Shown here: positions 1,294 through 60,026 of the stretch, piece after piece
Layout: each line of letters opens with the position of its first letter
Position numbering within the stretch: the stretch's first letter is position 1
Sequence record: OR455461.1
Reading direction: 5' to 3' (one strand)
DNA: 64,000 nt
Origin: Staphylococcus phage AH12
Notes under the pieces: model-generated
The model's input: only the letters and a program-made list of their open reading frames with translations
Told to the model about the DNA's origin: nothing
The model's database searches: none
Made by a program: the position numbers and the translations under genes

Positions 1294-1728
1294 TTGTCAG
1301 AAGAAAATAAAGAAGAAGTTATGTTAGATTTAGCAGTAACAGTTGATAAAGAAGGAAATATTATTGACTATGAAACTCTTCAATATGAAGATGAACCTAC
1401 AACTTTACATTTAAAAACAAAAATACCTTTTAAATATAAAGATCAAATAGATAAATTTTATGTAGTTATGGAAGGATTTAAACCTGTAACTAAATTAAAA
1501 GAAAATGAAGAAATTGATGAAAATAGATTAATGTCAGAATCTGATATTGAAGATCATCAAAGACGTAAAATAGATCGTATTAAGAATATGAATCTTATGA
1601 GTGAAGAGTTATCTAAAGGTGTAGATACAAACTTTAAAGGAACTTATGGCGGAGATGATTTTCAGTCATTAGGTAGCAAAACAAACCCTTTAGATGGTAT
1701 TGATGCTTTTGGTAATCGTATATATTAA
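1294..1728 (+). CDS. hypothetical protein
   Basis: 144-aa ORF with a Shine-Dalgarno-like AAAGGATGA 5' of the start, co-oriented with the upstream gene. Confidence 0.45.
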   Translation: MSEENKEEVMLDLAVTVDKEGNIIDYETLQYEDEPTTLHLKTKIPFKYKDQIDKFYVVMEGFKPVTKLKENEEIDENRLMSESDIEDHQRRKIDRIKNMNLMSEELSKGVDTNFKGTYGGDDFQSLGSKTNPLDGIDAFGNRIY

Positions 1729-1743
1729 AAAAAAAATAATAAA

Positions 1744-1786
1744 ATTCCCCTAACCTAAATTAATAGGTTAGGGGATATATTTTTAA
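1744..1786. terminator. bidirectional hairpin terminator between convergent genes
   Basis: Inverted repeat CCCCTAACCT / AGGTTAGGGG flanked by an A-run and a T-run, between a + strand and a - strand gene. Confidence 0.55.
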
Positions 1787-1793
1787 ATTTTAA

Positions 1794-2420
1794 TTAACCG
1801 AAAATACGATCTAATGATTCTTCTAATGATTCGTTTGTGCTTTCTTCATCTTCTGAATCTTCTTCTTCGTCTTCATCTTCTTTAGTAATTTTATCTACAT
1901 CTTCTTCAGGTTTTTCTTTAGAATCTAGAGATTTTTCTGAATTCATTTTGTTAGCTTTAGTTGTCTGCTTATCCACATCCATCTCAGGCTTTTCATTTTC
2001 TTCGAATAGACGTTCTAATTCTTCTTCTAATGAATCTTCATCATCTTCAGAATCTTCATCTTCGTCTTCATCTTCATCTTCTTCTTCAGAATCATCTTCG
2101 TCAGACTCTTCAACTGAATCTTCATCTTCTTCAGAATCATCTTCGTCAGACTCTTCAACTGAATCGTCTTCATCTTCATCTTCTTCAGAATCTTCTTCAT
2201 CTGCCGATTCAATGAGGTTTTCAAATTGTTCTTCTACTGAAGTTTCCTCTGAATCTTCATCATCTTTTTTATCAGATTTTGTTTCAGAATCTTCTTTAGA
2301 TTCACTTTCATCTTCATCTGCTGATTCAATGATACTTTCGAATTGTTCTTCAAGAGCTTCTTCCTGAGCTTGCTCGAAAAGTTGTTCTAACTCTTCTTGA
2401 ATTGCATTTTGTTTTTCCAT
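1794..2420 (-). CDS. highly acidic D/E/S-rich hypothetical protein
   Basis: 208-aa ORF, extreme acidic low complexity with an internal tandem repeat. The + strand ORFs 1837-2367, 1961-2215 and 2027-2224 are its mirror images and spurious. Confidence 0.5.
   Translation of the reverse strand: MEKQNAIQEELEQLFEQAQEEALEEQFESIIESADEDESESKEDSETKSDKKDDEDSEETSVEEQFENLIESADEEDSEEDEDEDDSVEESDEDDSEEDEDSVEESDEDDSEEEDEDEDEDEDSEDDEDSLEEELERLFEENEKPEMDVDKQTTKANKMNSEKSLDSKEKPEEDVDKITKEDEDEEEDSEDEESTNESLEESLDRIFG
2088..2177. repeat. 2 x ~45-nt tandem direct repeat inside the acidic protein gene
   Basis: CAGAATCATCTTCGTCAGACTCTTCAACTGAATC(G)TCTTCATCTTC occurs twice in tandem. Confidence 0.6.
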
Positions 2421-2610
2421 AATAAGTAATTCTCCTTTTTCAAAATATTTATATAATGATATAAAAATTATGTTTTGTTATTTTTCTAAATACGTGTACA
2501 GATTAATAAAAAATTGTTCATATTAATCTAAAAAATACAATTTCTGATAAAAAAAAAATAAATCACATATCTTAAAATTAATTAAGATATGTGATTGTTA
2601 TTAATAAATA

Positions 2611-3309
2611 TTAAATAAATGCATTTTTAATTTTTGCTTTTCTTTCTATATCTTTGAATTCATCTTCTTCTATAAAATCAAAATTATAATTAGACATTAA
2701 TGCATAAGTTAATGTATTAAAAATAGGACTTTCCTTACAATATTTTTCTCCTAAATTACTTATCAAATATATTATAGAACAAGTGTCTTCATCATTATAA
2801 TTCTTTATATTAATTATTATTCTATCTCGTTTTCTATTTTTAGGTTTACTTAATGTAAATATATAGGTATACTTATCCCTTAAATATTTTATTTCTTTAT
2901 GAATATTTTTTATTAATAATTCAGCTTGTTCTTTTTGTTCTTTATTACTAATCATGAATTCAAAGCTCATATTTAATAATGCTCTTTCATCATTAGGATT
3001 ATAAGGTCTATTGTAATTACTTTTATATAACACTATATTTAAAAAATCTTCATTGTTATAATAATCCATATTATTATAATCATTTAAAGATTTCAGTATA
3101 TCAACTATAGTTTCTTTATTTATAAAAGTTTTTAAATAGTCTATATTCATATCACTTAATCTTACTGATTTATCAAAATTGTTAACCATGTTTGGTATTC
3201 TTAAATAAACTGGGTTATCTTTATATAAATCACATAATTGATTAAAACTTAAAGGAATTACTCTAGGACCTATTAGTTCTTTTTCTTTAATTATTCTAAT
3301 ATCAATCAC
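2611..3309 (-). CDS. hypothetical protein, C-terminus ...KIKNAFI (loose member of the xK(D/E)xF(K/I) tail family)
   Basis: 232-aa ORF in a co-oriented array. Confidence 0.5.
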   Translation of the reverse strand: MIDIRIIKEKELIGPRVIPLSFNQLCDLYKDNPVYLRIPNMVNNFDKSVRLSDMNIDYLKTFINKETIVDILKSLNDYNNMDYYNNEDFLNIVLYKSNYNRPYNPNDERALLNMSFEFMISNKEQKEQAELLIKNIHKEIKYLRDKYTYIFTLSKPKNRKRDRIIINIKNYNDEDTCSIIYLISNLGEKYCKESPIFNTLTYALMSNYNFDFIEEDEFKDIERKAKIKNAFI

Positions 3310-3985: not shown

Positions 3986-4061
3986 AAAAGCATCTCATCC
4001 ATTTCTATATTATAATATAATAAAAAGTTACTATATTACTATGGATGAGATGTTATATAAT

Positions 4062-4904
4062 CTATTTAAAACTTTCTTTTACTGCTATCTTCTTATATTC
4101 ATCTTCTTGTACAAAAGTTATTTTTTCTTTATTTTTATTAATAATATCTTTATACGATATAGAATCTAAATTATCTAGTACTTCATCTTTAAAATATAAA
4201 GAATATAATTCGATACCTTTTTTATCTCTAAAGAAATTACAATTTAGTATTTGGTAATTATATTTTCTCATTAAAACTGATAAGAAATTATTTAATTCTT
4301 CTTTATTAGGAATTAAAAAGAATTTCATATTTTTCATTTCTTTATCATTTATACGATCTCTCCTAGATATATTGATATATGAAGTTATTGTTTTTGAAAT
4401 AACTTCATATAATTTATTTGGAGATGAATAATTATTAAAAAGATAAGGATTGATTTGCTTTCTATTTTTACCTTTTACATAATTATCTAATTTAAATTGA
4501 TACTCTTTAAATCTATTTAATATTTTTCTATTTACTTTATTAGATAAAATTAAATAATAACCTTCTTTAGTACCACGATTTTCTATATATAATATATCTA
4601 TTCTATTATCTATATCTTTTTTAACATGTCTAAATAATTTTTTATTAAATAATTGCATTACTTCATTTATATTAAAATAATTGTCACTATATCTTTCATC
4701 TTCAGGTGTAATATCATGTACAAATATTGTACCTACTTGTGGCATAAATTTTCCATCATTTTTATAATTTGAATTATAATTTACAACAGAATTGATAAAG
4801 AATTTATAAAAATTTTCATCTTCATTATTTTTATATAGCATATTGAATTTTATACTCTCATTATTCTTCTTAGTTAGTCTTTTATCTATTTTAATGATTT
4901 CCAT
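4062..4904 (-). CDS. paralog-family protein (C-terminal ...KIAVKESFK)
   Basis: 280-aa ORF. The C-terminal tail motif is shared with more than 10 other ORFs. Confidence 0.55.
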   Translation of the reverse strand: MEIIKIDKRLTKKNNESIKFNMLYKNNEDENFYKFFINSVVNYNSNYKNDGKFMPQVGTIFVHDITPEDERYSDNYFNINEVMQLFNKKLFRHVKKDIDNRIDILYIENRGTKEGYYLILSNKVNRKILNRFKEYQFKLDNYVKGKNRKQINPYLFNNYSSPNKLYEVISKTITSYINISRRDRINDKEMKNMKFFLIPNKEELNNFLSVLMRKYNYQILNCNFFRDKKGIELYSLYFKDEVLDNLDSISYKDIINKNKEKITFVQEDEYKKIAVKESFK

Positions 4905-22254: not shown

Positions 22255-22455
22255 TTACTTATTCACTTTGATTGCATAATCATAAAGTATCAAAGCAGTA
22301 TTAAAAGCTATATTATCTAATTTATTAATTCCCCTTTTAATTCTACCAATTTTAGCTCTACTTATTCCAGTACATTTTTCAATTTCATAATTACTAATCT
22401 CTTTATTATTTAATAGTTTTTCTATCTCATATTTAACTTCTTCAGCTTTATTCAC
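22255..22455 (-). CDS. RNA polymerase beta-prime fragment (66 aa) continuing exon 2 in the -1 frame; GTG start overlaps the upstream stop
   Basis: AEEVKYEIEKLL...CTGISRAKIGRIKRG aligns to the beta-prime block PKEAERLYRSGL...TTVGRAILW. It starts inside AAAGCTAGTGAATAAAGCT, which overlaps the stop codon of exon 2. Confidence 0.4.
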   Translation of the reverse strand: MNKAEEVKYEIEKLLNNKEISNYEIEKCTGISRAKIGRIKRGINKLDNIAFNTALILYDYAIKVNK

Positions 22456-22664
22456 TAGCTTTAATACCTACATTTTTTGATTTAGGGTTATTTAGTAAAT
22501 AAACAGCTATTTGTGAGTCTTTATTAAGCGAGTAAGTTCTATTAAATAATCCATCATTATATGAAATTAATTGATTTACTGGATCTTGGACTTTTAACTG
22601 TTCGTATTGTTCTTCTGAAAATAGTGCTATGATGTTTAAAGTGTCACCATCATACGTTTATCTT
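22448..22664 (-). CDS. RNA polymerase beta-prime N-terminal subunit, exon 2 (starts YDGDTLNIIALFSEEQYEQL...)
   Basis: YDGDTLNIIALFSEEQYEQLKVQDPVNQLISYNDG...SQIAVYLLNN aligns to [39 protein letters not shown]...SQDVVLGLYYMT (catalytic Mg-binding loop). There is no start codon. It is preceded by an intron-like element ending in G. Confidence 0.6.
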
Positions 22665-22834
22665 AATCTATATAAATATTATCATATAGACGAGACTATA
22701 TCATTACCATTTAAGGTAGAATATATTTAGTCGTTGAACAAATTATATTAATTTGATGCTGATTAATTTAATAATCTTCTCAGCAATTAATATTCTTTTC
22801 TATAAATCTCTCAATTTAAAGCGACTATTATTTA
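22665..22834 (-). ncRNA. compact group I intron B in the beta-prime gene (~170 nt)
   Basis: P AATTGCTGAG, Q AATCAGCATC, R GTTCAACGACTAAAT, S GATATAGTC and a P9 hairpin in canonical order. The element ends ...AAACG immediately before the YDGD exon. Confidence 0.6.
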
Positions 22835-22840
22835 ATCGGC
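22835..22840 (-). CDS. proposed 6-nt micro-exon GCCGAT (Ala-Asp) restoring NADYDGD
   Basis: Inference only. GCCGAT lies between the two intron cores, is preceded by ...CAAATG (a possible terminal G) and ends in T. Joining SNN + AD + YDGD reproduces the universal NADFDGD motif. Confidence 0.3.
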
Positions 22841-23041
22841 CATTTGTATTAACTTCATAGAGATTTTTCTATAAAGATTAGACTATATCAAACTCATATT
22901 AGTGAGTGAATTTATTTAGTCGTTGAACAATCATCTTGATTGATGCTGATTAATTTAATAATCTTCTCAGCAATTAAAATTCTTTTGACATTATATTACT
23001 ATAATGAAAGGCTACCTTTATAACCCATACCAGCAAGTATA
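22841..23041 (-). ncRNA. compact group I intron A in the beta-prime gene (~200 nt)
   Basis: Second copy of the P/Q/R/S core (core 22868-22986) immediately 3' of ...VVGISNN. The upstream exon's reading frame runs on into the intron and stops by chance at 23000. Confidence 0.55.
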
Positions 23042-24120
23042 TTATTACTAATACCTACTACTGATGATTCTATATCTTGAATTATATCTTTAATTTTCAA
23101 TATTTGAACAGAGCTTTCACTAATTGAGGGATTTCTATTTAAAATAACTCTCATTCCATTTTCAGTTTTATCAACTAGTTCTCTCATATATTTATATACT
23201 TTAGGATTAAATGTATCTAATGCTCTGTCTAATATTTCTTCACCTTTAGCTAAAGGAATATTTTCTGTTACATACATTAAATTTGCTAAGATAGGTTTAT
23301 ATACTTCTAAGAAGATAGTGTAATTTAATCTGATTTCATTTAATTTAAGGTCAGGTGCTGGAACAATTACTGAACGTGCAGAGAAACCAACACGACTACC
23401 CATTAGTAATTTACGAATAGTTCCACCTTTACCTTTAATATTCTCATTAATTACACGATCACTAATATTAATACTATCATTCTGAATTTTACTTAATAGA
23501 TTTAATTTTTGTAACTCCACTGAATCATCTGTATAATGTCTATCAAGTTCTTTAATACTATTACTATGTGCAATTAATAAATTATAATCTTTATTAATTT
23601 CAGAATGTCTAAAAGTTTTAGTAGCTTTGTTAACTGTAGCAGGTCTTAATTTAGGACTAAATACAGTTACATAATTTTGGAATAGTAAATCAGATAAATA
23701 CCATTGTACTACTCTATTGTAATCTTTAGTTTTACGTTTATCACGTTTAACTTCTTCTTTAAGAATTTTTAAGAAATTCTTTCTAAATTCAATTAAACCA
23801 ATATAAGAGTTATGATCATCTTCAGGTTCAATTACATTACCATTCTCATCAATAGGTTTTTCAGAACTAATAATTTCTTGGAATCTTTTATTACCAATTA
23901 ATTTTTTAACACGTTCATATCCTAATGGATTTAATATATAATTATTACCTAAATCTACAATAGCTTCATTAGTAATATTATCTGCTTCTGAATCAGGACC
24001 GAAGATTTTTTCACTGAAAATACCATCTTCAGTGAAATCTCCTTTTTTATCTATTGATTCATGATTAGTTACAACTGGAACATTTTCTAAATCCTTTTTC
24101 TTGAGTAAAAATCTAACCAT
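23042..24120 (-). CDS. RNA polymerase beta-prime N-terminal subunit, exon 1
   Basis: IKGKGGTIRKLLMGSRVGFSARSVIVPAPDLKLNEIRLNYTIFLEVYKP aligns to [46 protein letters not shown]. ...VILNRNPS aligns to VLLNRAPT. The exon stops just before the DFDGD loop. Confidence 0.65.
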
Positions 24121-38248: not shown

Positions 38249-38635
38249 TTATTTTGAATCTTCTTTAATTTCTTTAACTAAATTATTTATTTCTGTAGAT
38301 GTTAAATCTTTAATATCATCTACATTTTCGAATTTTTCCATTAAGAACTCTAATTGATCTGGAGAAAGATCCATAATTGAATAAAGATCTTCTTCTTCTG
38401 CTTTATTGTAATCAATACTAACATTTAATGGACTAAAGTAAGCATTAAGTACTTTAGTGTTGTTATTTTGATATCTTTTTTCAAATGTAGTATTTAATTT
38501 AAAAGGATTACCTGTATATAACTCTACTAATAAACGTTTTCTTAAGTCTTCATTATTAGAGTACATATTAGTTAATTCATTAATAGCTTTGATAGATCCA
38601 CCGATCATCATGTTAGTTGTTTCCATCTCACCGCA
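38249..38635 (-). CDS. RNA polymerase beta C-terminal gene #1, terminal exon (starts ..GEMETTNMMIGGSIKAINEL)
   Basis: The frame is open upstream of the first Met back to ...CGGTGAGATGGAA. GEME + 21 residues align to the universal [22 protein letters not shown] block. Preceded by an intron core ending ...AATAACTG. Confidence 0.55.
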   Translation of the reverse strand, partial: CGEMETTNMMIGGSIKAINELTNMYSNNEDLRKRLLVELYTGNPFKLNTTFEKRYQNNNTKVLNAYFSPLNVSIDYNKAEEEDLYSIMDLSPDQLEFLMEKFENVDDIKDLTSTEINNLVKEIKEDSK

Positions 38636-38781
38636 GTTATTCTAAATATTATTATTTAGCTAGACTATATCATTACCATTTAAGGTAGAATATATTTAGT
38701 CGTTGAACACTAATTAAAGTGATGCTGATTAATTTAATAATCTCTCAGCAATTAATATTCTTTACATTTATACATTTCTAT
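38636..38781 (-). ncRNA. compact group I intron (beta #1, core 38664-38761)
   Basis: P/Q/R/S core, the P3 pairing GAATA/TATTC and a P9 hairpin CTAAAT..ATTTAG. Confidence 0.55.
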
Positions 38782-38834
38782 ATAACGGAGCCTTTTATTT
38801 GACTCTGAGAGGATTGTTGTTTATTCTTGATCTG
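38782..38834 (-). CDS. proposed micro-exon (...KQQSSQSQIKGSVI) of beta #1
   Basis: Inference. The frame QIKNKQQSSQSQIKGSVI, joined to the terminal exon through a split ATC codon, gives QIKGSVIGEME, which aligns to [11 protein letters not shown]. The segment is locally richer in G+C than the flanking intron sequence. Confidence 0.35.
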
Positions 38835-39037
38835 TAAAACTTAGACATTTATATTAACTATATTTATTTAAAAAATAGATTAGACTATATCATTACCATT
38901 TAAGGTAGAATATATTTAGTCGTTGAACCTCTTATTTGAGGATGCTGATTAATTCAATAATCTCTCAGCAATTAATATTCTTTACATACATATTATTTCT
39001 AATACATGGGACACAAAATTTATCCGGTGTTCTTGTG
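38835..39037 (-). ncRNA. compact group I intron (beta #1, core 38882-38980)
   Basis: P/Q/R/S core with the hairpin variant TACCATTTAAGGTA. Confidence 0.5.
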
Positions 39038-39060
39038 GGAATACCACTGTAATTATTAAA
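39038..39060 (-). CDS. proposed micro-exon (..YSHKNTG) of beta #1
   Basis: Inference. TATTCCCACAAGAACACCGGAT encodes YSHKNTG, comparable to SRSMKTG in beta #2 and HARSTG in bacterial beta. Confidence 0.3.
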
Positions 39061-39262
39061 GTCAATTGATTTTGCACTTAATTTCTATTTTATTAATCTT
39101 TATAATATAATTTATAAAGTATAGACTATATCTTCATTCTATATTATAGAAGAACTATATTTAGTCGTTGAACACTATTTAAAGTGATGCTGATTATTTT
39201 ATTACTCTCAGCAATTAATAATTTAATAATTCTTTAATTTATATAAAGAACGGCAAATAATT
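39061..39262 (-). ncRNA. compact group I intron (beta #1, core 39122-39225)
   Basis: P/Q/R/S core. P8 hairpin variant CTTC...GAAG with compensatory substitutions. P9 hairpin CTTTATAAattataTTATAAAG. Confidence 0.5.
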
Positions 39263-39283
39263 TACCTGATGGTTCATGTTTTA

Positions 39284-40829
39284 CGAATCTATATTAACTT
39301 CATATAGATCCCAGACTATATCTTAAAGTCTATGAAGACCTTTCACTTATTTAGTCGTTGAAGCTCTTTAATTATATTTTCAATCTCTTTTAAATGGTCT
39401 TGTTTATAGTTTATTCTATAAAGAGGAATATTTTTATTGATACAATATTCATCTTTCATTTTATCTTTCATTCTAATCTCTTCTAATTTTTCTTTAGGAA
39501 ATCTGCTACTAGGATTTTTCCTAAAATGCTGTTCACCATCATATTCAATTAGTACATTATAATCTACTAAATAAAAATCAAATCTTAAATTTTGATTTAT
39601 TTTTAGATCTTCAAATGTTTTCTCAAACTCAACATTTGTATTCGTATCAATTAAATATTTTTCTATTTGACGGTGAGCTAATGAATTTGCATACTGTTTT
39701 GCACAAAAAGGACATTTATTTATAGAATCTTTAAAATATTCTGCTTTCATTTTAAAATTATTTCCACATTTTTTATGATGAAAATTGTAAATATTTTTAG
39801 TTCCCTTGAATTCATTATCTAGTATTAAATATTCATTTGAATTAAATTTTTTATTACATATTTCTAGAAATTCTTTTTTTGTTAAGAATTTATTCTCTAA
39901 GCTACAATGTGGACATTTATAATCATTATTTAACATATTATTTGCTAGCATATTAAAACTTCTGTTACATTTTTTATGAAGGAAATTATGTTTAGTTTTA
40001 ATTCCTTTAAACTTGTCATCTAATAATTCGTAATCATCATAATCTTTTCTATTTTCTTTCATTTTTTCATTAAATGACTTTTTATCGTATTTTAATAATT
40101 TAATTTTATCACAATTAGGACAAATAATAACATTATTTAAAAAACTTCCTCCGGTCATTTCAAATTCAGTTCCACAATCATCATGTTTAAATTTTGTTAT
40201 TTTAGAGAATCCATTATACTTTCCTAAAATAGAATACCCACTTATATTTTTCTCTTTTTTAGCCTTTTCTAAAAACTCTTCATTACTATATTTCACAGAG
40301 AAACAACAATTTGGGCATCGATTCATATTGTATAAAAATTCAGAACCTTTCATTGTAAAATATTTTCCACATTCTTCATGGTAAAACTTATGGTGTTTTT
40401 TAGTACTTTTAAAATCATCAATTAATTTATAACCTTCAGTACTTTTTCTTTTGTTTGCTTCTTCCATAAAAGTTTTATTATTGTATTTTAAACCATTTTC
40501 ACATTTAGGACATCTCTTAGAGTAATCTAAAAAACCTCTACCTGTCATTTCAAATTCAGTTCCACAATCAACATGTAATATTTTATGATTAAATTTATAA
40601 CCTTTATACTCTTCTAATAATTCATAATTTCCAATATTCTTTTCTTTTATTTTATTCATATATTCTTCATGTGTTAATTTTACCATTTATTTCCTCACCT
40701 TTCCAGACCAATAGAAAGGATTTTAATATAATTAAATTAGCATGCTGATTACTTTTAAAGCTTCTCAGCAATTAAAGTGATTTTTCATTTATTGTTACCA
40801 ATATAAGGAAGCTAAAACATAATTTGTCT
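39284..40829 (-). ncRNA. group I intron with a homing-endonuclease ORF in the P6 loop (beta #1)
   Basis: P AATTGCTGAG and Q AATCAGCATG lie at about 40745-40785. The ORF 39343-40686 follows Q. The ORF's stop codon lies inside the R element (CAACGACTAAATAAGTGA). S GATATAGTCTGG and a P9 hairpin follow at about 39290-39330. Confidence 0.55.
39343..40686 (-). CDS. intron-encoded homing endonuclease-like protein: 5 tandem Zn-ribbon modules + C-terminal PD-(D/E)xK (DUF559/Vsr-like) nuclease domain
   Basis: Five repeats of the pattern ...F.H..CG..F.M....FL....CP.C. C-terminal ...RFDFYLVDYNVLIEYDGEQHFR. Own ribosome-binding site AGGTGAGG. Embedded in the intron. Confidence 0.55.
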   Translation of the reverse strand: MVKLTHEEYMNKIKEKNIGNYELLEEYKGYKFNHKILHVDCGTEFEMTGRGFLDYSKRCPKCENGLKYNNKTFMEEANKRKSTEGYKLIDDFKSTKKHHKFYHEECGKYFTMKGSEFLYNMNRCPNCCFSVKYSNEEFLEKAKKEKNISGYSILGKYNGFSKITKFKHDDCGTEFEMTGGSFLNNVIICPNCDKIKLLKYDKKSFNEKMKENRKDYDDYELLDDKFKGIKTKHNFLHKKCNRSFNMLANNMLNNDYKCPHCSLENKFLTKKEFLEICNKKFNSNEYLILDNEFKGTKNIYNFHHKKCGNNFKMKAEYFKDSINKCPFCAKQYANSLAHRQIEKYLIDTNTNVEFEKTFEDLKINQNLRFDFYLVDYNVLIEYDGEQHFRKNPSSRFPKEKLEEIRMKDKMKDEYCINKNIPLYRINYKQDHLKEIENIIKELQRLNK

Positions 40830-41402
40830 TTACTTCAGGTGATACAAATCTCCAACCATAAATGTTCTATTACTAACATCTAGTCGGTTTTTCTTAATAT
40901 TGTATTTATTGAATAAGTATCTGATTTGTTCAGATTCAATATTATCAAAGAAAGGTGCTTGATGAAGTACAATACCATTTTTAATAAAGTCTTCAATAGC
41001 TTCTTTAGTTTCTTCACTATCTAAACTATCAAATAATCTTACATAATTATCATAAGATACTTTATCTGCATCTTTGATATATTCTAATAAATATTCTTTC
41101 TGCTTATTAACATCATCTAACTTACTAATACGATGTCTAATAACGCTTGAAATATGATTTAATTCTAATTCCACTAATGCTGAAGGATTTCCTCTATTAA
41201 TAATACCCATATTATTATGAATTAAGTCTACTCTTTTCTTAATAGGAGTTTTATTATCTTTGGTGAAATCTTCTCCATCAAATTCAGTAATCATTGGCAT
41301 TTCATTATCTGGAACAATCTTAGCTACTACACCTTTTCCACCGTATCTTGTGCTTATTTTTGCATTTATGTTAATGAACTTCATAGACTTTACTAAGAAG
41401 AT
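40830..41402 (-). CDS. RNA polymerase beta C-terminal gene #1, exon C (GRHGNKG region)
   Basis: AKISTRYGGKGVVAKIVPDNEMPMITEFDG aligns to [29 protein letters not shown]. The end ...MVGDLYHLK aligns to VGYMYMLKL. The frame is open 18 nt upstream of the ATG (IFLVKS). Confidence 0.6.
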   Translation of the reverse strand: MFLVKSMKFININAKISTRYGGKGVVAKIVPDNEMPMITEFDGEDFTKDNKTPIKKRVDLIHNNMGIINRGNPSALVELELNHISSVIRHRISKLDDVNKQKEYLLEYIKDADKVSYDNYVRLFDSLDSEETKEAIEDFIKNGIVLHQAPFFDNIESEQIRYLFNKYNIKKNRLDVSNRTFMVGDLYHLK

Positions 41403-41537
41403 CAGACTATATCATTACCTTCATATAAGGTAGAATATATTTAGTCGTTGAACACTATTTATAGTGATGCTGATTAATTTTATAATTCTCAGCAATTAAT
41501 ATTCTTTACATATAAATTTTCATTCATAAGGGACCTA
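41403..41537 (-). ncRNA. ultra-compact group I intron (~135-145 nt; core 41404-41505)
   Basis: P/Q/R/S core, P3 pairing GAATA/TATTC, P6 pairing CACTA..TAGTG. The element ends with the S element + G directly before exon C. The 5' boundary is uncertain by a few codons. Confidence 0.55.
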
Positions 41538-42115
41538 TTAATTTGATCCATGCACTAAAGGTTTCTTCTCTAATACTTTAACTCTAAATACGATTTTATC
41601 AAATTGATTTCCATCATATACAAGTTTAGCATTAGGATCAATGTAGCTCTTAAATCTATTATAAGTTCTAATTAAATCATTACTAAATTTCTTCTTACGT
41701 ACAATATCATCAGTAACAGTTACAAATGTACGGTAGAAGTGTTCTAAATCTTTGATATATTTTAGGAATTGTTCAGAGTACTTTTCATTCTCTAATTTTT
41801 CAATTGATTCATTGTTAAGTACATCAATATCAATAACTTTACCATGCAATTTATAAGCGTTATCACTTTCAACAATTTTAGATAACATATCATTTTTAAA
41901 TTTATGGATTAACTCATCATAATTTAATCGTCTTGTTGCAGTTAATACACCGTCTTTAATTTCTTCACCAACGTCTGGAAATGCTTTATAATATTCTTCA
42001 TCTCCATAAATATTTAAAGGAATATCATTTGTATTTATAGTTACATTAACTACATGAACGAAATAACTTGACATTTTCTCAGCTAATGATTCTGATACAA
42101 CAATACCATCTTCCT
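41538..42115 (-). CDS. RNA polymerase beta C-terminal gene #1, exon B
   Basis: EDGIVVSESLAEK... and ...GEEIKDGVLTAT align to DSGVTAVAKRGGVV ... GEPVERGDVLADG. The end KIVFRVKVLEKKPLVHG aligns to KIVKVYLAVKRRIQPG. It begins right after the element's terminal ...CCTATAG. Confidence 0.6.
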
Positions 42116-42262
42116 ATAGGTTATAATTAATAAAATTATACCATAGACTATATCATTACCGTTTAAGGTAGAATATATTTAGTCGTTGAACACTGTTTTT
42201 AGTGATGCTGATTAATTTAATAACATCTCAGCAATTAATATTCTTTACATACATAAATTTCT
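42116..42262 (-). ncRNA. ultra-compact group I intron (~147 nt; core 42146-42242)
   Basis: P, P5, Q, P6, R, P3', P8 (TACCGTTTAAGGTA), S and P9 (GGTATAATT..AATTATAACC), then TATAG followed by the exon. Only about 22 nt is available for P1/P2. Confidence 0.55.
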
Positions 42263-42814
42263 TTATGCAGGAACAAAGTTAATTTTATTCGTGAATCCTT
42301 TATCTGGTAAAAATACTGAAGTAGCATTTGTACCATATTGGAAATTATTTGATTCTTCATCATAGTTTTGATCTTTATAAAGTACTTCATTTTTATTAAC
42401 ATTACTACCAATTTCTAAAGAATCAATTTTTTCATTTTGATATTTATTACCAAATTTCTCAGCTAAATGATTAGCTTCTTCTCTAATAATGATATCATAC
42501 TCATCATTATCTTTATACTTCACTAAATAGTATTTTACATATTTATTCTTTTCAAATATAAAAATAACTTCAAAATCTCTTTCAGCTTTCTTATAACCAG
42601 TTGAATATTTACCTACTTGATTCTCAAAACCAGTTTGAATTAATGGTGGTTCAGCTTCAGTTAATTGAATACATTGACCTATATGTGAAGTGAACATTTG
42701 TGATCTGTTACCATTAGTTCTATTAACATTAGGCATTAATAGTAATTCTGATAAAAATTCATGACTTTTCTTATCTTCAATCTCTTGCATTCTTTGTGTT
42801 CTTTCCTTTGTCAT
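42263..42814 (-). CDS. RNA polymerase beta C-terminal gene #1, exon A (region F)
   Basis: NGNRSQMFTSHIGQCIQLTEAEPPLIQTGFENQ aligns to ANRALMGSNMQRQAVPLL..EAPLVGTGME. Confidence 0.6.
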   Translation of the reverse strand: MTKERTQRMQEIEDKKSHEFLSELLLMPNVNRTNGNRSQMFTSHIGQCIQLTEAEPPLIQTGFENQVGKYSTGYKKAERDFEVIFIFEKNKYVKYYLVKYKDNDEYDIIIREEANHLAEKFGNKYQNEKIDSLEIGSNVNKNEVLYKDQNYDEESNNFQYGTNATSVFLPDKGFTNKINFVPA

Positions 42815-57450: not shown

Positions 57451-57750
57451 TTATTCTTCTTGATCATAATCAGTTCTAGTATCTTTAAGTAAATCTGAAT
57501 CTATACCAGCACCTAATAAATAATAGTAAGTGGTATTCAAAGTAGTTTTATCAGAAAGATCGTCTGGTAAATCTTCTAGACGAGTATAACCATACATTGA
57601 AATGTTTTTATTCATTTCCTGTTTAGCATTCATAGAGTCTGAACGAGGACCCATTAATTCTCTTAATATATCTTGAGACCCAATTGCTCTTAATGCTGAA
57701 GCTTCCATATTTGATACAGAAGCTACCTTGTCCGCACCTGAGAGTTGCGA
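57451..57750 (-). CDS. RNA polymerase beta C-terminal gene #2, terminal exon (starts ..QLSGADKVASVSNMEASALRAIGSQDILRELMGPRSDS)
   Basis: The frame is open upstream of the Met. QLSGADKVASVSNMEASALRAIG..LRELMGPRSDSMNAKQEMNKNI aligns to [48 protein letters not shown]. Confidence 0.6.
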   Translation of the reverse strand, partial: SQLSGADKVASVSNMEASALRAIGSQDILRELMGPRSDSMNAKQEMNKNISMYGYTRLEDLPDDLSDKTTLNTTYYYLLGAGIDSDLLKDTRTDYDQEE

Positions 57751-57897
57751 TTATCCTATATATTTCTATATAAGTCAGACTATATCTTATACTCTTTATG
57801 AGTACCATTATATTTAGTCGTTGAACAATCAATTTGATTGATGCTGATTAACTTTAATTTTCTCAGCAATTAATAATATTATCATTATCATATTACT
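57751..57897 (-). ncRNA. ultra-compact group I intron (beta #2, core 57777-57880)
   Basis: P/Q/R/S core. P9 hairpin TATATAGAAATATATA with a GAAA tetraloop. The element ends ...GGATAATCG before the exon. Confidence 0.5.
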
Positions 57898-58020
57898 ATA
57901 ATAAGCGGCCAAAATTTTTTCATTAAAACCGGTTTTCATTGATCTCGAGGAAGCGTCTAGACTGTATGCGTTTTTCTTTGAGAGGAGCTGCTGTACAATA
58001 ACTTCATACACTATTTTTAA
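57898..58020 (-). CDS. RNA polymerase beta gene #2, internal mini-exon (~120 nt; ..LKIVYEVIVQQLLSKKNAYSLDASSRSMKTGFNEKIL..)
   Basis: Locally G+C-richer island flanked by intron cores. SRSMKTG aligns to ARSTG. The ORF-track entry 57829-58011 reads through into the intron. Boundaries approximate. Confidence 0.4.
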
Positions 58021-58161
58021 TTAGTGTTTAGACTATATATTCATCCTATTAGGAGTTTTAATTTTAGTCGTTGAACTTTATTAAGATTATTCACTTAATA
58101 TTAGATGCTGATTAGCTTCATAAACTTTCCCAGCAATTTAAAAAATTTTACATATACATTA
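58021..58161 (-). ncRNA. ultra-compact group I intron (beta #2, core 58030-58140)
   Basis: P/Q/R/S core. P has TTGCTGGG, which gives a G-U wobble with Q, a change tolerated only at the RNA level. Confidence 0.45.
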
Positions 58162-58205
58162 CTGCATAAGGAGGCTACAACAGTATTTAACCTCTTAACA
58201 TGTAA
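58162..58205 (-). CDS. proposed micro-exon (..HVKRLNTVVASL..) of beta #2
   Basis: Inference. HVKRLNTVV aligns to MLKLNHLVD of bacterial beta. A G+C-richer island between two intron cores. Confidence 0.3.
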
Positions 58206-58340
58206 GTCATTTATCTTTACTATATTCATTTTATAGATGAGACTATATCTTCTTTGCCATATATTTAGTCGTTGAACAATTCAATTGATGCTGATCAACT
58301 TTAAATGTCTTTTCAGCAGTTAATATGATTTTAATTGAGC
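58206..58340 (-). ncRNA. ultra-compact group I intron (beta #2, core 58242-58325)
   Basis: P/Q/R/S core with correlated P and Q substitutions (CTGCTGA / GATCAGCATC). P9 hairpin CTATAaaatgaaTATAG. Confidence 0.45.
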
Positions 58341-60026
58341 TCATACATAAGTTAACCCAACTGGTACTTTATATCTAGTTCTTAATGGATCTTCTTTATT
58401 TCCATCATGTCTATAATAAACAAATTCATTCATAGGAACTTCTAATTTGTCTAAAGCTTCTTGTATTTGATTAATATCAGCTTCAGATTTATTAGGTAAA
58501 ACTTCTATATAGAAATTCTCATCACTATTTATGAAACGTTTAATATATCTCATAAATTCTTCATCATTCATTTCATCGTAAAATGATTTATAATTTCTCA
58601 TATTACTTTGATCTTTATCTAATGAAGATATAACATCAAGTATTTTATTTTGAATTTCTTGACGTTTCTTTTTATTGTCGCTTACTGCTTCATTTAAGAT
58701 TGATTCTGGTTCTAGAATAGTTTCATTTAAAGTATTTTCATTGAATTCCATAAAGAATCTTTCGATTATTTCTATATCACTAGATATTGCTTTTTGGAAT
58801 TCAAAACTAGCAGGAATTTCTTTAACACTAAATTTGAATTCTCCATTATCTTTAACATTCTCATCGAAACCAAATTTGTCTGCACTATATCTATTAATAT
58901 CTTCCATATTACCAAATATAATTGGACTATCAATACTAAAGTCTGCTAATACATATCCTTGTCCATTATATGACACAGGGAAAAGTTTTATTCTATTTTT
59001 AGATGGTTCTACATATGAAATTAACTCTATAGATTTGATCCCTAATTTCTTTTCCAATATTTTAAAATAAAGTAAAGATAATAGGTTAGGATTTATTCTT
59101 CCTTGATCTGGTTTAATAGAGAAGTTTTTATCTAATATCATTGAAGGAGTTACTGTATAATATACTTCTTCAGATTTATCTTCAGTAAATACAGGTTTAG
59201 AATTTTTAGTTTTATTATATAGGTAATTAAAAACATCTAATTCATTTTCTAATTGATACTCATAAATTATATCATTTAATTTATTATCAAATTCATAGTC
59301 TCCATAGAATTTATAGATGTCAGTTTCATTATATTTCAAAACTTCTTTATTTGTGAATAAAGGTGAATTGAGTACATTATTCTCTGTAAATATTTTATTG
59401 TATATAATATCTTCTTTAGAATCTGAGAAAATATTATTTCCCATAGATTCTAAAACTTTTACTAAAGTTCTTAATTTAGCATCATTATAGAAATTATACT
59501 TATCTTTATTATAACTTACATATTCTTCAGAATTTAAATACTCACTAAAATCTTTTCTTTTAGTTGAATCTTTACTTAGAAATCTAACTTTAGTAACTTC
59601 TGTAAGCTTATCAATATCATTCAAAATAGTTTTAATACTGCCAGTATCGTTAATAACGATAGGATTTCCACCTTTATAATCTCCAGCATAATCTATTAAT
59701 ATATCTTCTTCTCTACTCTTTTGATTTTGAAGAACGATGAATCTAATTTGTGTATTATCATTAAAATACTTAATTAAACTAATATCAAACCAACAAGAAT
59801 TTCCTTTTTTATCATGAATTTGATTTTCATTATAATCTAATAGAAAATCTATTTCTGATTCAGTGACTAATATTTCTGTTTCATTCACTAAATCAATAGG
59901 AGATTTAATTACACTGATATTATCTGATCCACATTCAGAACAAGATGTAATATCTTCATTATATTCTTGAACTTTGCTACAAGAATTACATCTAACGTAT
60001 TTATTTTTCAATTCATTCACTTCCAA
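58341..60026 (-). CDS. RNA polymerase beta C-terminal gene #2, exon 1 (N-terminal Zn ribbon; AGDYKGG and ..[19 protein letters not shown] blocks)
   Basis: [14 protein letters not shown] aligns to [40 protein letters not shown] aligns to [22 protein letters not shown]. The ORF ends where gene #1 is also interrupted. Confidence 0.5.
   Translation of the reverse strand: [561 protein letters not shown]

Follow-up and report, generated by a model that had tools for sequence, protein, structure and literature searches.

How can a multisubunit RNA polymerase be supplied with its catalytic loop by a gene in which the very codons of that loop are split apart? This question is raised by a locus of Staphylococcus phage AH12 (sequence record OR455461.1), which was analysed within a stretch of 64,000 nucleotides that is referred to here as the window. 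The DNA of the 64-kb window is approximately 97% identical to that of Staphylococcus phage Machias and 96% identical to that of vB_StaM_PB50; both relatives are AR9/PBS1-like jumbo phages with two multisubunit RNA polymerases. The Pfam domain RNA_pol_Rpb1_2 matched the minus-strand ORF 24120..22999, and PF00623 matched the predicted spliced product of the locus with an E-value of 2.3e-11. Because the spliced product also matches the AR9 gp270 structures 7S00/7S01 (E 3e-70), the gene at 24120..22448 on the minus strand is identified by homology as that of the non-virion RNA polymerase (nvRNAP) beta-prime N-terminal subunit, a homologue of AR9 gp270. The predicted protein comprises 436 residues (...VVGISNNILAGMG-AD-YDGDTLNII...) and contains both Rpb1 domain 2 and the three-aspartate loop (x-A-D-F/Y-D-G-D), a motif that becomes whole only once two introns have been spliced out. 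In our reading, which we hold with considerable confidence, the codons of the Mg-binding loop are split by two group I introns that are independent of each other, carry no ORF and measure about 180 nt each; they lie 6 nt apart and would be spliced with distinct guides. The features on which this reading is based are listed in Table 1, together with related features of two other polymerase genes.

Table 1. Predicted features of the split RNA polymerase genes in the window.
Feature	Position	Strand	Description
nvRNAP beta-prime exon 1	23023..24120	-	366 codons; ends ...ISNNILAGMG, last base U at 23023; placed by PF00623, intronless alleles L001 and L008 and P1 pairing
Intron 1	22841..23022	-	182 nt, ORF-less group I; starts UAUAAAGG, ends ...CAAAUG, terminal G 22841
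P1 hairpin, intron 1	23009..23026	-	exon GGGU (23026..23023) and intron UAU with GUA-GCCU (23015..23009); wobble U23023.G23012
Core element GTTCAACGACTAAAT (J6/7 and 5' strand of P7), intron 1	22914..22928	-	partner GATATAGTCT at 22889..22880
Micro-exon GCCGAT	22835..22840	-	6 nt, Ala367-Asp368
Intron 2	22655..22834	-	180 nt, ORF-less group I; starts UAAAUAAU, ends ...GAUAAACG, terminal G 22655
P1 hairpin, intron 2	22822..22838	-	CGAU|UA (22838..22833) with UAGUCG (22827..22822); wobble U22835.G22825
Core element GTTCAACGACTAAAT, intron 2	22725..22739	-	partner GATATAGTCT at 22702..22693
nvRNAP beta-prime exon 2	22448..22654	-	68 codons and stop; YDGDTLNIIALF...IKASE; without its own start codon
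nvRNAP beta gene	42814..38252	-	six introns: five mini-introns and one long
nvRNAP beta mini-introns	42286..42114, 41545..41363, 39263..39085, 39021..38846, 38801..38634	-	same family as introns 1 and 2
nvRNAP beta long intron	40831..39284	-	holds a 447-aa zinc-ribbon-rich, endonuclease-like ORF, 40686..39343
nvRNAP beta short exons	39283..39264, 39084..39022, 38845..38802	-	20, 63 and 44 nt
Virion RNAP beta gene	60011..57454	-	
Virion RNAP beta mini-introns	58354..58208, 58189..57996, 57927..57748	-	
Virion RNAP beta short exons	58207..58190, 57995..57928	-	18 nt (ACTTACATGTTAAGAGGT) and 68 nt

The ends of the interruption were fixed by intronless homologues, which read ...VVGISNNILAGMGADYDGD at the place where the beta-prime gene is split. 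The initial annotation, which was made from the sequence alone, had ended exon 1 at ...VVGISNN (23041); because the intronless homologues keep the residues ILAGMG, which belong to the exon, exon 1 ends 18 nt further downstream, at 23023. Translation resumes at 22654 (TATGATGG) and not at 22664, so that the earlier coordinates were off by 10 to 18 nt, and the whole interruption measures 368 nt (182 + 6 + 180) in place of the 377-nt gap that had been proposed. By the same alignments, the motif NADYDGD, which had been rebuilt by joining SNN to AD, is replaced by GADYDGD. HMMER aligned NNILAGMGADYDGD with the bacterial ...CTAFNADFDGD and the AR9 ...LSALSGDYDGD, in which the ADYDGD of the rebuilt loop (G-A-D-Y-D-G-D) corresponds to AR9 GDYDGD and to bacterial NADFDGD. 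The predicted junction is also spanned by the alignment with the AR9 gp270 chain of known structure (7S00/7S01), and exon 2 aligns to AR9 gp270 through residue 424. Among the intronless alleles, the PALS_2 gene reads VVGISNNILAGMGADYDGDTLNII / ...AVVGISNNILAGMGADYDGDTLNIIALF... across the junctions, while an uninterrupted allele on an ENA metagenome contig (L008, protein P0001) shares 99% protein and 96.7% DNA identity with the predicted spliced gene, with identical residues across both junctions. The predicted product therefore matches the intronless alleles residue for residue across both junctions, and precise removal of the two introns, which we infer to occur by splicing, restores the conserved uninterrupted reading frame. 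The polymerase subunit is predicted to carry the peptide ...ILAGMGADYDGDTLNIIALF... across both junctions, which in the spliced subunit would yield the tryptic peptide DIIQDIESSVVGISNNILAGMGADYDGDTLNIIALFSEEQYEQLK.

Both introns were recognised as group I introns by the Rfam model RF00028 in a local scan of 901 nt, intron 2 at 22844..22673 (36.9 bits, E 1.2e-7) and intron 1 at 23032..22859 (24.8 bits, E 5e-4), and both alignments span the full model (positions 1-253) from P1 to P9. Both scores lie below the curated gathering score of 50 bits, which is a database threshold tuned to longer introns and not a structural criterion; the two introns are far shorter than typical RF00028 members and have minimal P2, P5, P6, P8 and P9 elements. 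A whole-window Rfam scan at gathering thresholds returned no match, and one at an E-value threshold returned no intron match, as its filters drop short introns. Routine annotation thus misses introns of this size, none being detected in the window at the default Rfam thresholds, and missed introns may explain the truncated or fragmented polymerase CDSs in the Machias and PB50 records. The group I core, in turn, is complete in both introns: helices P3 to P8 and the P3/P7 pseudoknot are present, J6/7-P7 GUUCAACGACUA and J8/7-P7' GAUAUAGUC are exact, and the Rfam alignment likewise shows the conserved elements GUUCAACGACUAAA and GAUAUAGUC at their places. Each intron ends in G (G22841 and G22655) and each 5' exon in U, just as had been anticipated for group I chemistry. 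Neither intron encodes an endonuclease, as a homing intron would, and no ORF longer than 20 aa was found on the coding strand of either.

The two introns belong to a larger family of mini-introns. On the minus strand of the window there are 11 occurrences of GTTCAACGACTAAAT with GATATAGTCT downstream, where 0.09 would be expected, and the boundaries of 10 short copies (147 to 194 nt) were set using the intronless DC4 genes as guides. All 10 of these copies end in G, mostly within the motif AUAAAUG. An alignment of 11 copies using MAFFT and RNAalifold recovered only P4, P7 and P8 and misaligned the variable helices, and it was replaced by a covariance model that was built from six copies with a hand-annotated structure. 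The family model (R1) recovers all 10 short window copies, the two that Machias has and others in LY01 and PB50, and scores intron 1 at 142.7 bits and intron 2 at 158.9 bits. In the family alignment, which was fitted to this model and so favours the structure, 87.4% of the cells are paired compared to 68.5% in shuffles and 35-48% in slid controls; compensatory change is seen in 34 of the 45 pairs, and not one of the five measures was reached in 500 shuffles. P7 does not vary between the copies and is therefore uninformative for covariation.

A comparison of the two introns with each other revealed how the pair may have arisen. P3 differs in a compensatory manner (GAAUUU/AAAUUC in intron 1 and GAAUAU/AUAUUC in intron 2) and the hairpins P6, P8 and P9 also differ, while the P4, P7 and junction sequences are identical. 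In the model alignment the introns are no more than 69% identical, and for each of them more similar copies are found at other places in the window, for which reason a simple local duplication was rejected as the origin of the pair; judged from these sequences, they look like two separate insertions. The whole P4-P5 segment, which is identical in both, nevertheless suggests some exchange between the intron copies. Between the window and Machias, the substitutions are few and the structure is kept, as in P9 of intron 1, in which a U.G pair is replaced by C-G.

The manner in which the two splice sites could be told apart follows from their P1 helices. For intron 1, the fold of lowest local energy (-6.4 kcal/mol) is the P1 hairpin, which has 7 bp. 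The P1 of intron 2 has just four pairs with the exon, and its GUCG stands at position 10 of the intron, a match for which 0.075 occurrences are expected by chance in 37 positions. The Rfam model sets the splice-site U.G at the proposed sites of both introns. In nine of the 10 short copies, intron positions 10-19 contain a G and, directly after it, bases complementary to exon positions -2 to -4; 12 of 15 family members have the U.G wobble of P1, and the guide covaries with these exon positions. A P10 pairing is also available to intron 1, between GCC of the micro-exon and GGU at 23016..23014 beside the guide, although it needs a one-base offset. According to these pairings, each intron would locate its 5' splice site by a short P1 that consists of the U.G wobble and three exon pairs, the guide of intron 1 pairing GGGU with GCCU and that of intron 2 pairing CGAU with GUCG. 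The hexamer GCCGAU would then serve both ribozymes, its first three bases forming P10 of intron 1 and its last four P1 of intron 2, and would be ligated to exons 1 and 2 in two rounds of ordinary guanosine-initiated splicing to give ...ILAGMG-AD-YDGDTL....

That the micro-exon is GCCGAT, as the initial annotation had already proposed on account of its position between the two cores after ...CAAATG, is borne out by several lines of evidence. The hexamer, which is preceded by ...CAAATG and followed by TAAAT, is the sole GCNGAY in the 368-nt interruption; at the frequency found in the window, a 58-nt spacer is expected to hold 0.027 such hexamers, or 0.0018 when a preceding G and a final T are also required. 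Its two codons specify Ala and Asp368, the first aspartate of the three in the loop. At the same spot, the intronless alleles have GCT GAC, GCA GAC or GCC GAT, and the micro-exon is exactly conserved in Machias. Compared to the nearest intronless allele, which has GCA GAC, both wobble positions of GCC GAU are changed synonymously, and both changes are to the bases that P1 of intron 2 and P10 of intron 1 need. The surroundings are similarly altered, with seven differences from this allele in the 58 nt around the junction as against about one per 30 nt overall, a pattern that could arise if adjoining exon sequence had been co-converted together with the introns, or if the pairings were under selection. 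Both the presence of two tandem group I introns inside the loop codons of the beta-prime gene and the exact placement of the 6-nt Ala-Asp micro-exon are thus predictions that are well supported by the intronless alleles, the covariation within the family and the pairing of exons with guides, to which the local RF00028 matches add for the introns. The arrangement is not that of a twintron, since the 6 nt between the introns are coding and are retained in all homologues, and each intron is complete alone.

The closeness of two such similar ribozymes raises the question of whether the micro-exon is retained in the mRNA. By analogy with the Twort orf142 gene, as it is summarised in PMC10136302, two catalytic cores that are almost identical and only 6 nt apart could lead to misfolding or to skipping of the exon. 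The micro-exon could mostly be skipped, or the pair could behave as one composite intron, exon 1 being joined directly to exon 2; this in-frame loss of 6 nt would remove the first loop aspartate and leave an inactive or regulatory isoform. The P4, P7 and junction sequences that the two cores have in common would suit such an outcome, but we consider it very unlikely because all homologues keep A/G-D at the position of the micro-exon, which Machias preserves to the base, and because the guides of the two introns differ and their cross pairings are weak. The cognate P1/P10 duplexes (-3.6, -2.7 and -3.3 kcal/mol) are stabler than the cross pairings (-0.3 and -1.1 kcal/mol) or the skipping pairing (+1.6 kcal/mol), and guide sequences that are differentiated in this way favour exon inclusion (PMC10136302). 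A small share of the transcripts may still lack the micro-exon.

Exon 2 provides further evidence that the loop is rebuilt by splicing. Its region has no entry in the list of ORFs of the window, as it has no start codon, and no promoter or terminator signal above chance was found that would point to its separate expression. Yet 23 of its 68 codons differ synonymously from those of PALS_2 and only five non-synonymously, which indicates that exon 2 is under purifying selection; it is therefore most probably translated and can be reached only via splicing. In the public record of Machias, the only annotated part is the unspliced ORF 1701..2822, which ends ...GMGYKGSLSL, and exon 2 has no annotation; the PB50 record presents the gene as two separate CDSs, with one endonuclease-bearing intron at another site in the loop. 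As a result of the unjoined exons, the polymerase subunit of the Machias record lacks the catalytic loop. Such records would be expected if the locus was decaying and its introns no longer spliced, leaving a pseudogene or a truncated subunit with the same ...GMGYKGSLSL end. We regard decay as highly improbable given the selection on an exon that cannot start translation alone, the intact cores of both introns and the structure-preserving substitutions between the window and Machias (such as U.G to C-G in P9), and given that the truncated protein would be without all three catalytic aspartates. In AR9-like phages, this polymerase subunit is presumed to be necessary.

A start of intron 1 right after ...ISNN (23041/23040), with the product ...GISNN-AD-YDGD, has next to nothing to recommend it, for although AAUAAU ends in U and pairs weakly (5 bp) with GUUAU downstream, and although NAD would fit the bacterial motif, every intronless homologue keeps ILAGMG before ADYDGD, AR9 gp270 reads likewise (LLSALSGDYDGD), and the family alignment and Rfam both put P1 at GGGU|UAU, with which the introns are 182 and 180 nt long like their relatives.

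The reading with two separately spliced introns and a retained micro-exon has precedent in kind, as very short exons between group I introns are known from other systems. The 2-codon exon had been expected to be exceptional, which does not hold in general, in view of an exon of 1 nt in placozoans, one of 23 nt in Twort and exons of 18 to 68 nt elsewhere in the window; it does hold for phages and bacteria, for which 6 nt is the shortest exon between group I introns reported in the literature that was searched. Within the same literature, a 6-nt exon that encodes a catalytic residue appears to be new for phages. One of the closest parallels is Twort orf142, in which, according to the account of Landthaler & Shub (1999) given in PMC10136302, a 23-nt exon lies between the similar short IA2 introns I2 and I3 and exon skipping occurs. 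As far as this account goes, both cases concern two highly similar short group I introns in tandem in a Staphylococcus phage gene with a very short exon between them, and in both the inclusion of the exon depends on distinct P1 guide sequences (PMC10136302), for the window by prediction. In that account, Twort differs in the length of its exon (23 nt versus 6 nt), in its host gene and intron sequences and in that skipping was demonstrated; it is, moreover, a Twort-like myovirus and not an AR9-like jumbo phage. Other short exons are the 34-nt exon between group I introns of the Coxiella 23S rRNA, for which skipping was also described (PMC10136302), and a small exon between group I introns of phiNIT1, the size of which is not given (PMC11878797). 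In placozoan mitochondrial cox1, a 1-nt exon between two group IB introns is backed by RNA-seq (PMC5436844). As in the window, a second group I intron beside an existing one isolates an ultra-short exon at an indispensable codon there, and annotation had missed both; the placozoan case, however, concerns group IB introns of an animal organelle that are documented by RNA-seq, whereas the predicted introns of the phage are IA-type mini-introns.

The same catalytic loop has been hit repeatedly. In the orthologous AR9 gene g270, the GenBank CDS of which is annotated as joined, one much longer intron with the HNH homing endonuclease g271 is inserted at DYDG^D, in contrast to the two ORF-less introns of the window. 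The same site DYDG^D, which lies 9 nt downstream of the position of intron 2, is occupied in PB50 by a long intron that also bears an endonuclease, and in LY01 a member of the mini-intron family is inserted at ILNR^NPSI of the same gene while the loop is intact. Among the metagenomic homologues, truncated proteins were seen that end with GMG, GMG(A/G) or YDG, and the corresponding contigs hold larger introns at these places. Within a 15-nt stretch of the loop, the sites used in the window and its relatives are G^A, A^D, D^Y and G^D, those of the window being G^A and D^Y. The insertion sites that lie no more than 15 nt from the codons of the aspartate triad thus number at least three, and probably four, in one phage clade; for this count, the distant interrupted alleles L009, L010 and L011, the junctions of which are not base-exact, served solely as evidence for a hot spot in the loop. 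On contigs L010 (~4060..4470) and L011 (~4150..4670), introns that are larger and of a different type, with the core GTTCAACGACTATCGAAAA that AR9 also has, were observed at the (A/G)^D codon boundary. In these two alleles, the junction expected from a U at -1 is one base away from that expected from a terminal intron G, which would mean that a base other than U is used at the splice site or that the junction has moved. The ORF of the PB50 intron (L004, 4679..6193), which is named a homing endonuclease in the PB50 record, and the window ORF 40686..39343 were both seen to contain repeated treble-clef/zinc-ribbon motifs (weak Pfam matches to DUF4379 and Zn_ribbon).

Such clustering invites the question of whether the mini-introns are more than passengers, which we consider unlikely but worth setting out. 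By breaking up the loop DNA, they could destroy the target of an endonuclease of the PB50/AR9 type that acts at YDG^D and so confer immunity in co-infection; the 6-nt exon would then be the scar of an arms race in which successive introns piled into one 15-nt hot spot. A second role, which does not exclude the first, is regulated skipping of the 6-nt exon; if it occurs, it would yield a catalytically dead beta-prime that modulates late transcription. The intron endonuclease gp210 of the jumbo phage PhiPA3 demonstrated that intron-borne nucleases can decide the competition between co-infecting phages (PMC11620839). PhiPA3 resembles the window in having a group I intron in a jumbo phage gene and differs from it in that the introns of the window are without a nuclease, and a part played by the latter in competition or immunity is speculation. 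The question of whether introns without an ORF can shield a site from homing endonucleases could be examined with the mini-intron family. The locus itself is a compact natural test case, as the same 6 nt would have to act as 3' exon for intron 1 and as the complete 5' exon for intron 2; with it, one can ask how small an exon a group I intron needs, how hybrid ribozymes are avoided at a distance of 6 nt and how skipping is suppressed.

BLAST matches to the mini-intron family were obtained in five Staphylococcus jumbo phages only: LY01 (32 places), Machias (29), PB50 (21), Madawaska (12) and MarsHill (10). PALS_2, S6, DC4 and SA1 gave no BLAST match to it, and scans of IMG/VR with the protein, the micro-exon junction and the core pattern found nothing. 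In a scan of JGI metagenomes, the core pattern picked up two loci, neither of which was recognised by the family model. In the data that were searched, the family therefore appears to be confined to a clade of Staphylococcus jumbo phages. These 10 to 32 places per genome, taken together with the clustered insertion sites, clearly illustrate the proliferation of introns at the active sites of enzymes. In the preprint of Korn et al. (bioRxiv 10.1101/2020.12.14.422802), many genes of MarsHill, Madawaska and Machias are described as disrupted by introns, with exon numbers predicted by protein alignment.

Two further polymerase genes of the window, those for the nvRNAP beta and virion RNAP beta subunits, are split in a comparable manner (Table 1). 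For the latter, the intronless DC4 gene reads VGYLHVKRLQQLL across the junctions. The 6-nt exon is thus no isolated oddity and forms the extreme of a series of short exons (18, 20, 44, 63 and 68 nt) in the window. One insertion site in the nvRNAP beta gene was noted to be GFTN^EDGIVV, the conserved motif of beta subunits. The family member at 58354..58208 on the minus strand is just 147 nt long, seemingly lacks the P8 hairpin and has a very reduced P2; if spliced, it is an unusually small group I intron. Finally, an insertion of about 180 nt (~22447..22268, minus strand) was observed directly after the stop codon of the beta-prime gene, which is absent from Machias, PALS_2 and PB50. It contains a minus-strand ORF of 66 aa (22455..22255) with weak matches to helix-turn-helix domains of the Cro/C1 type, the GTG start of which overlaps the end of the polymerase gene.
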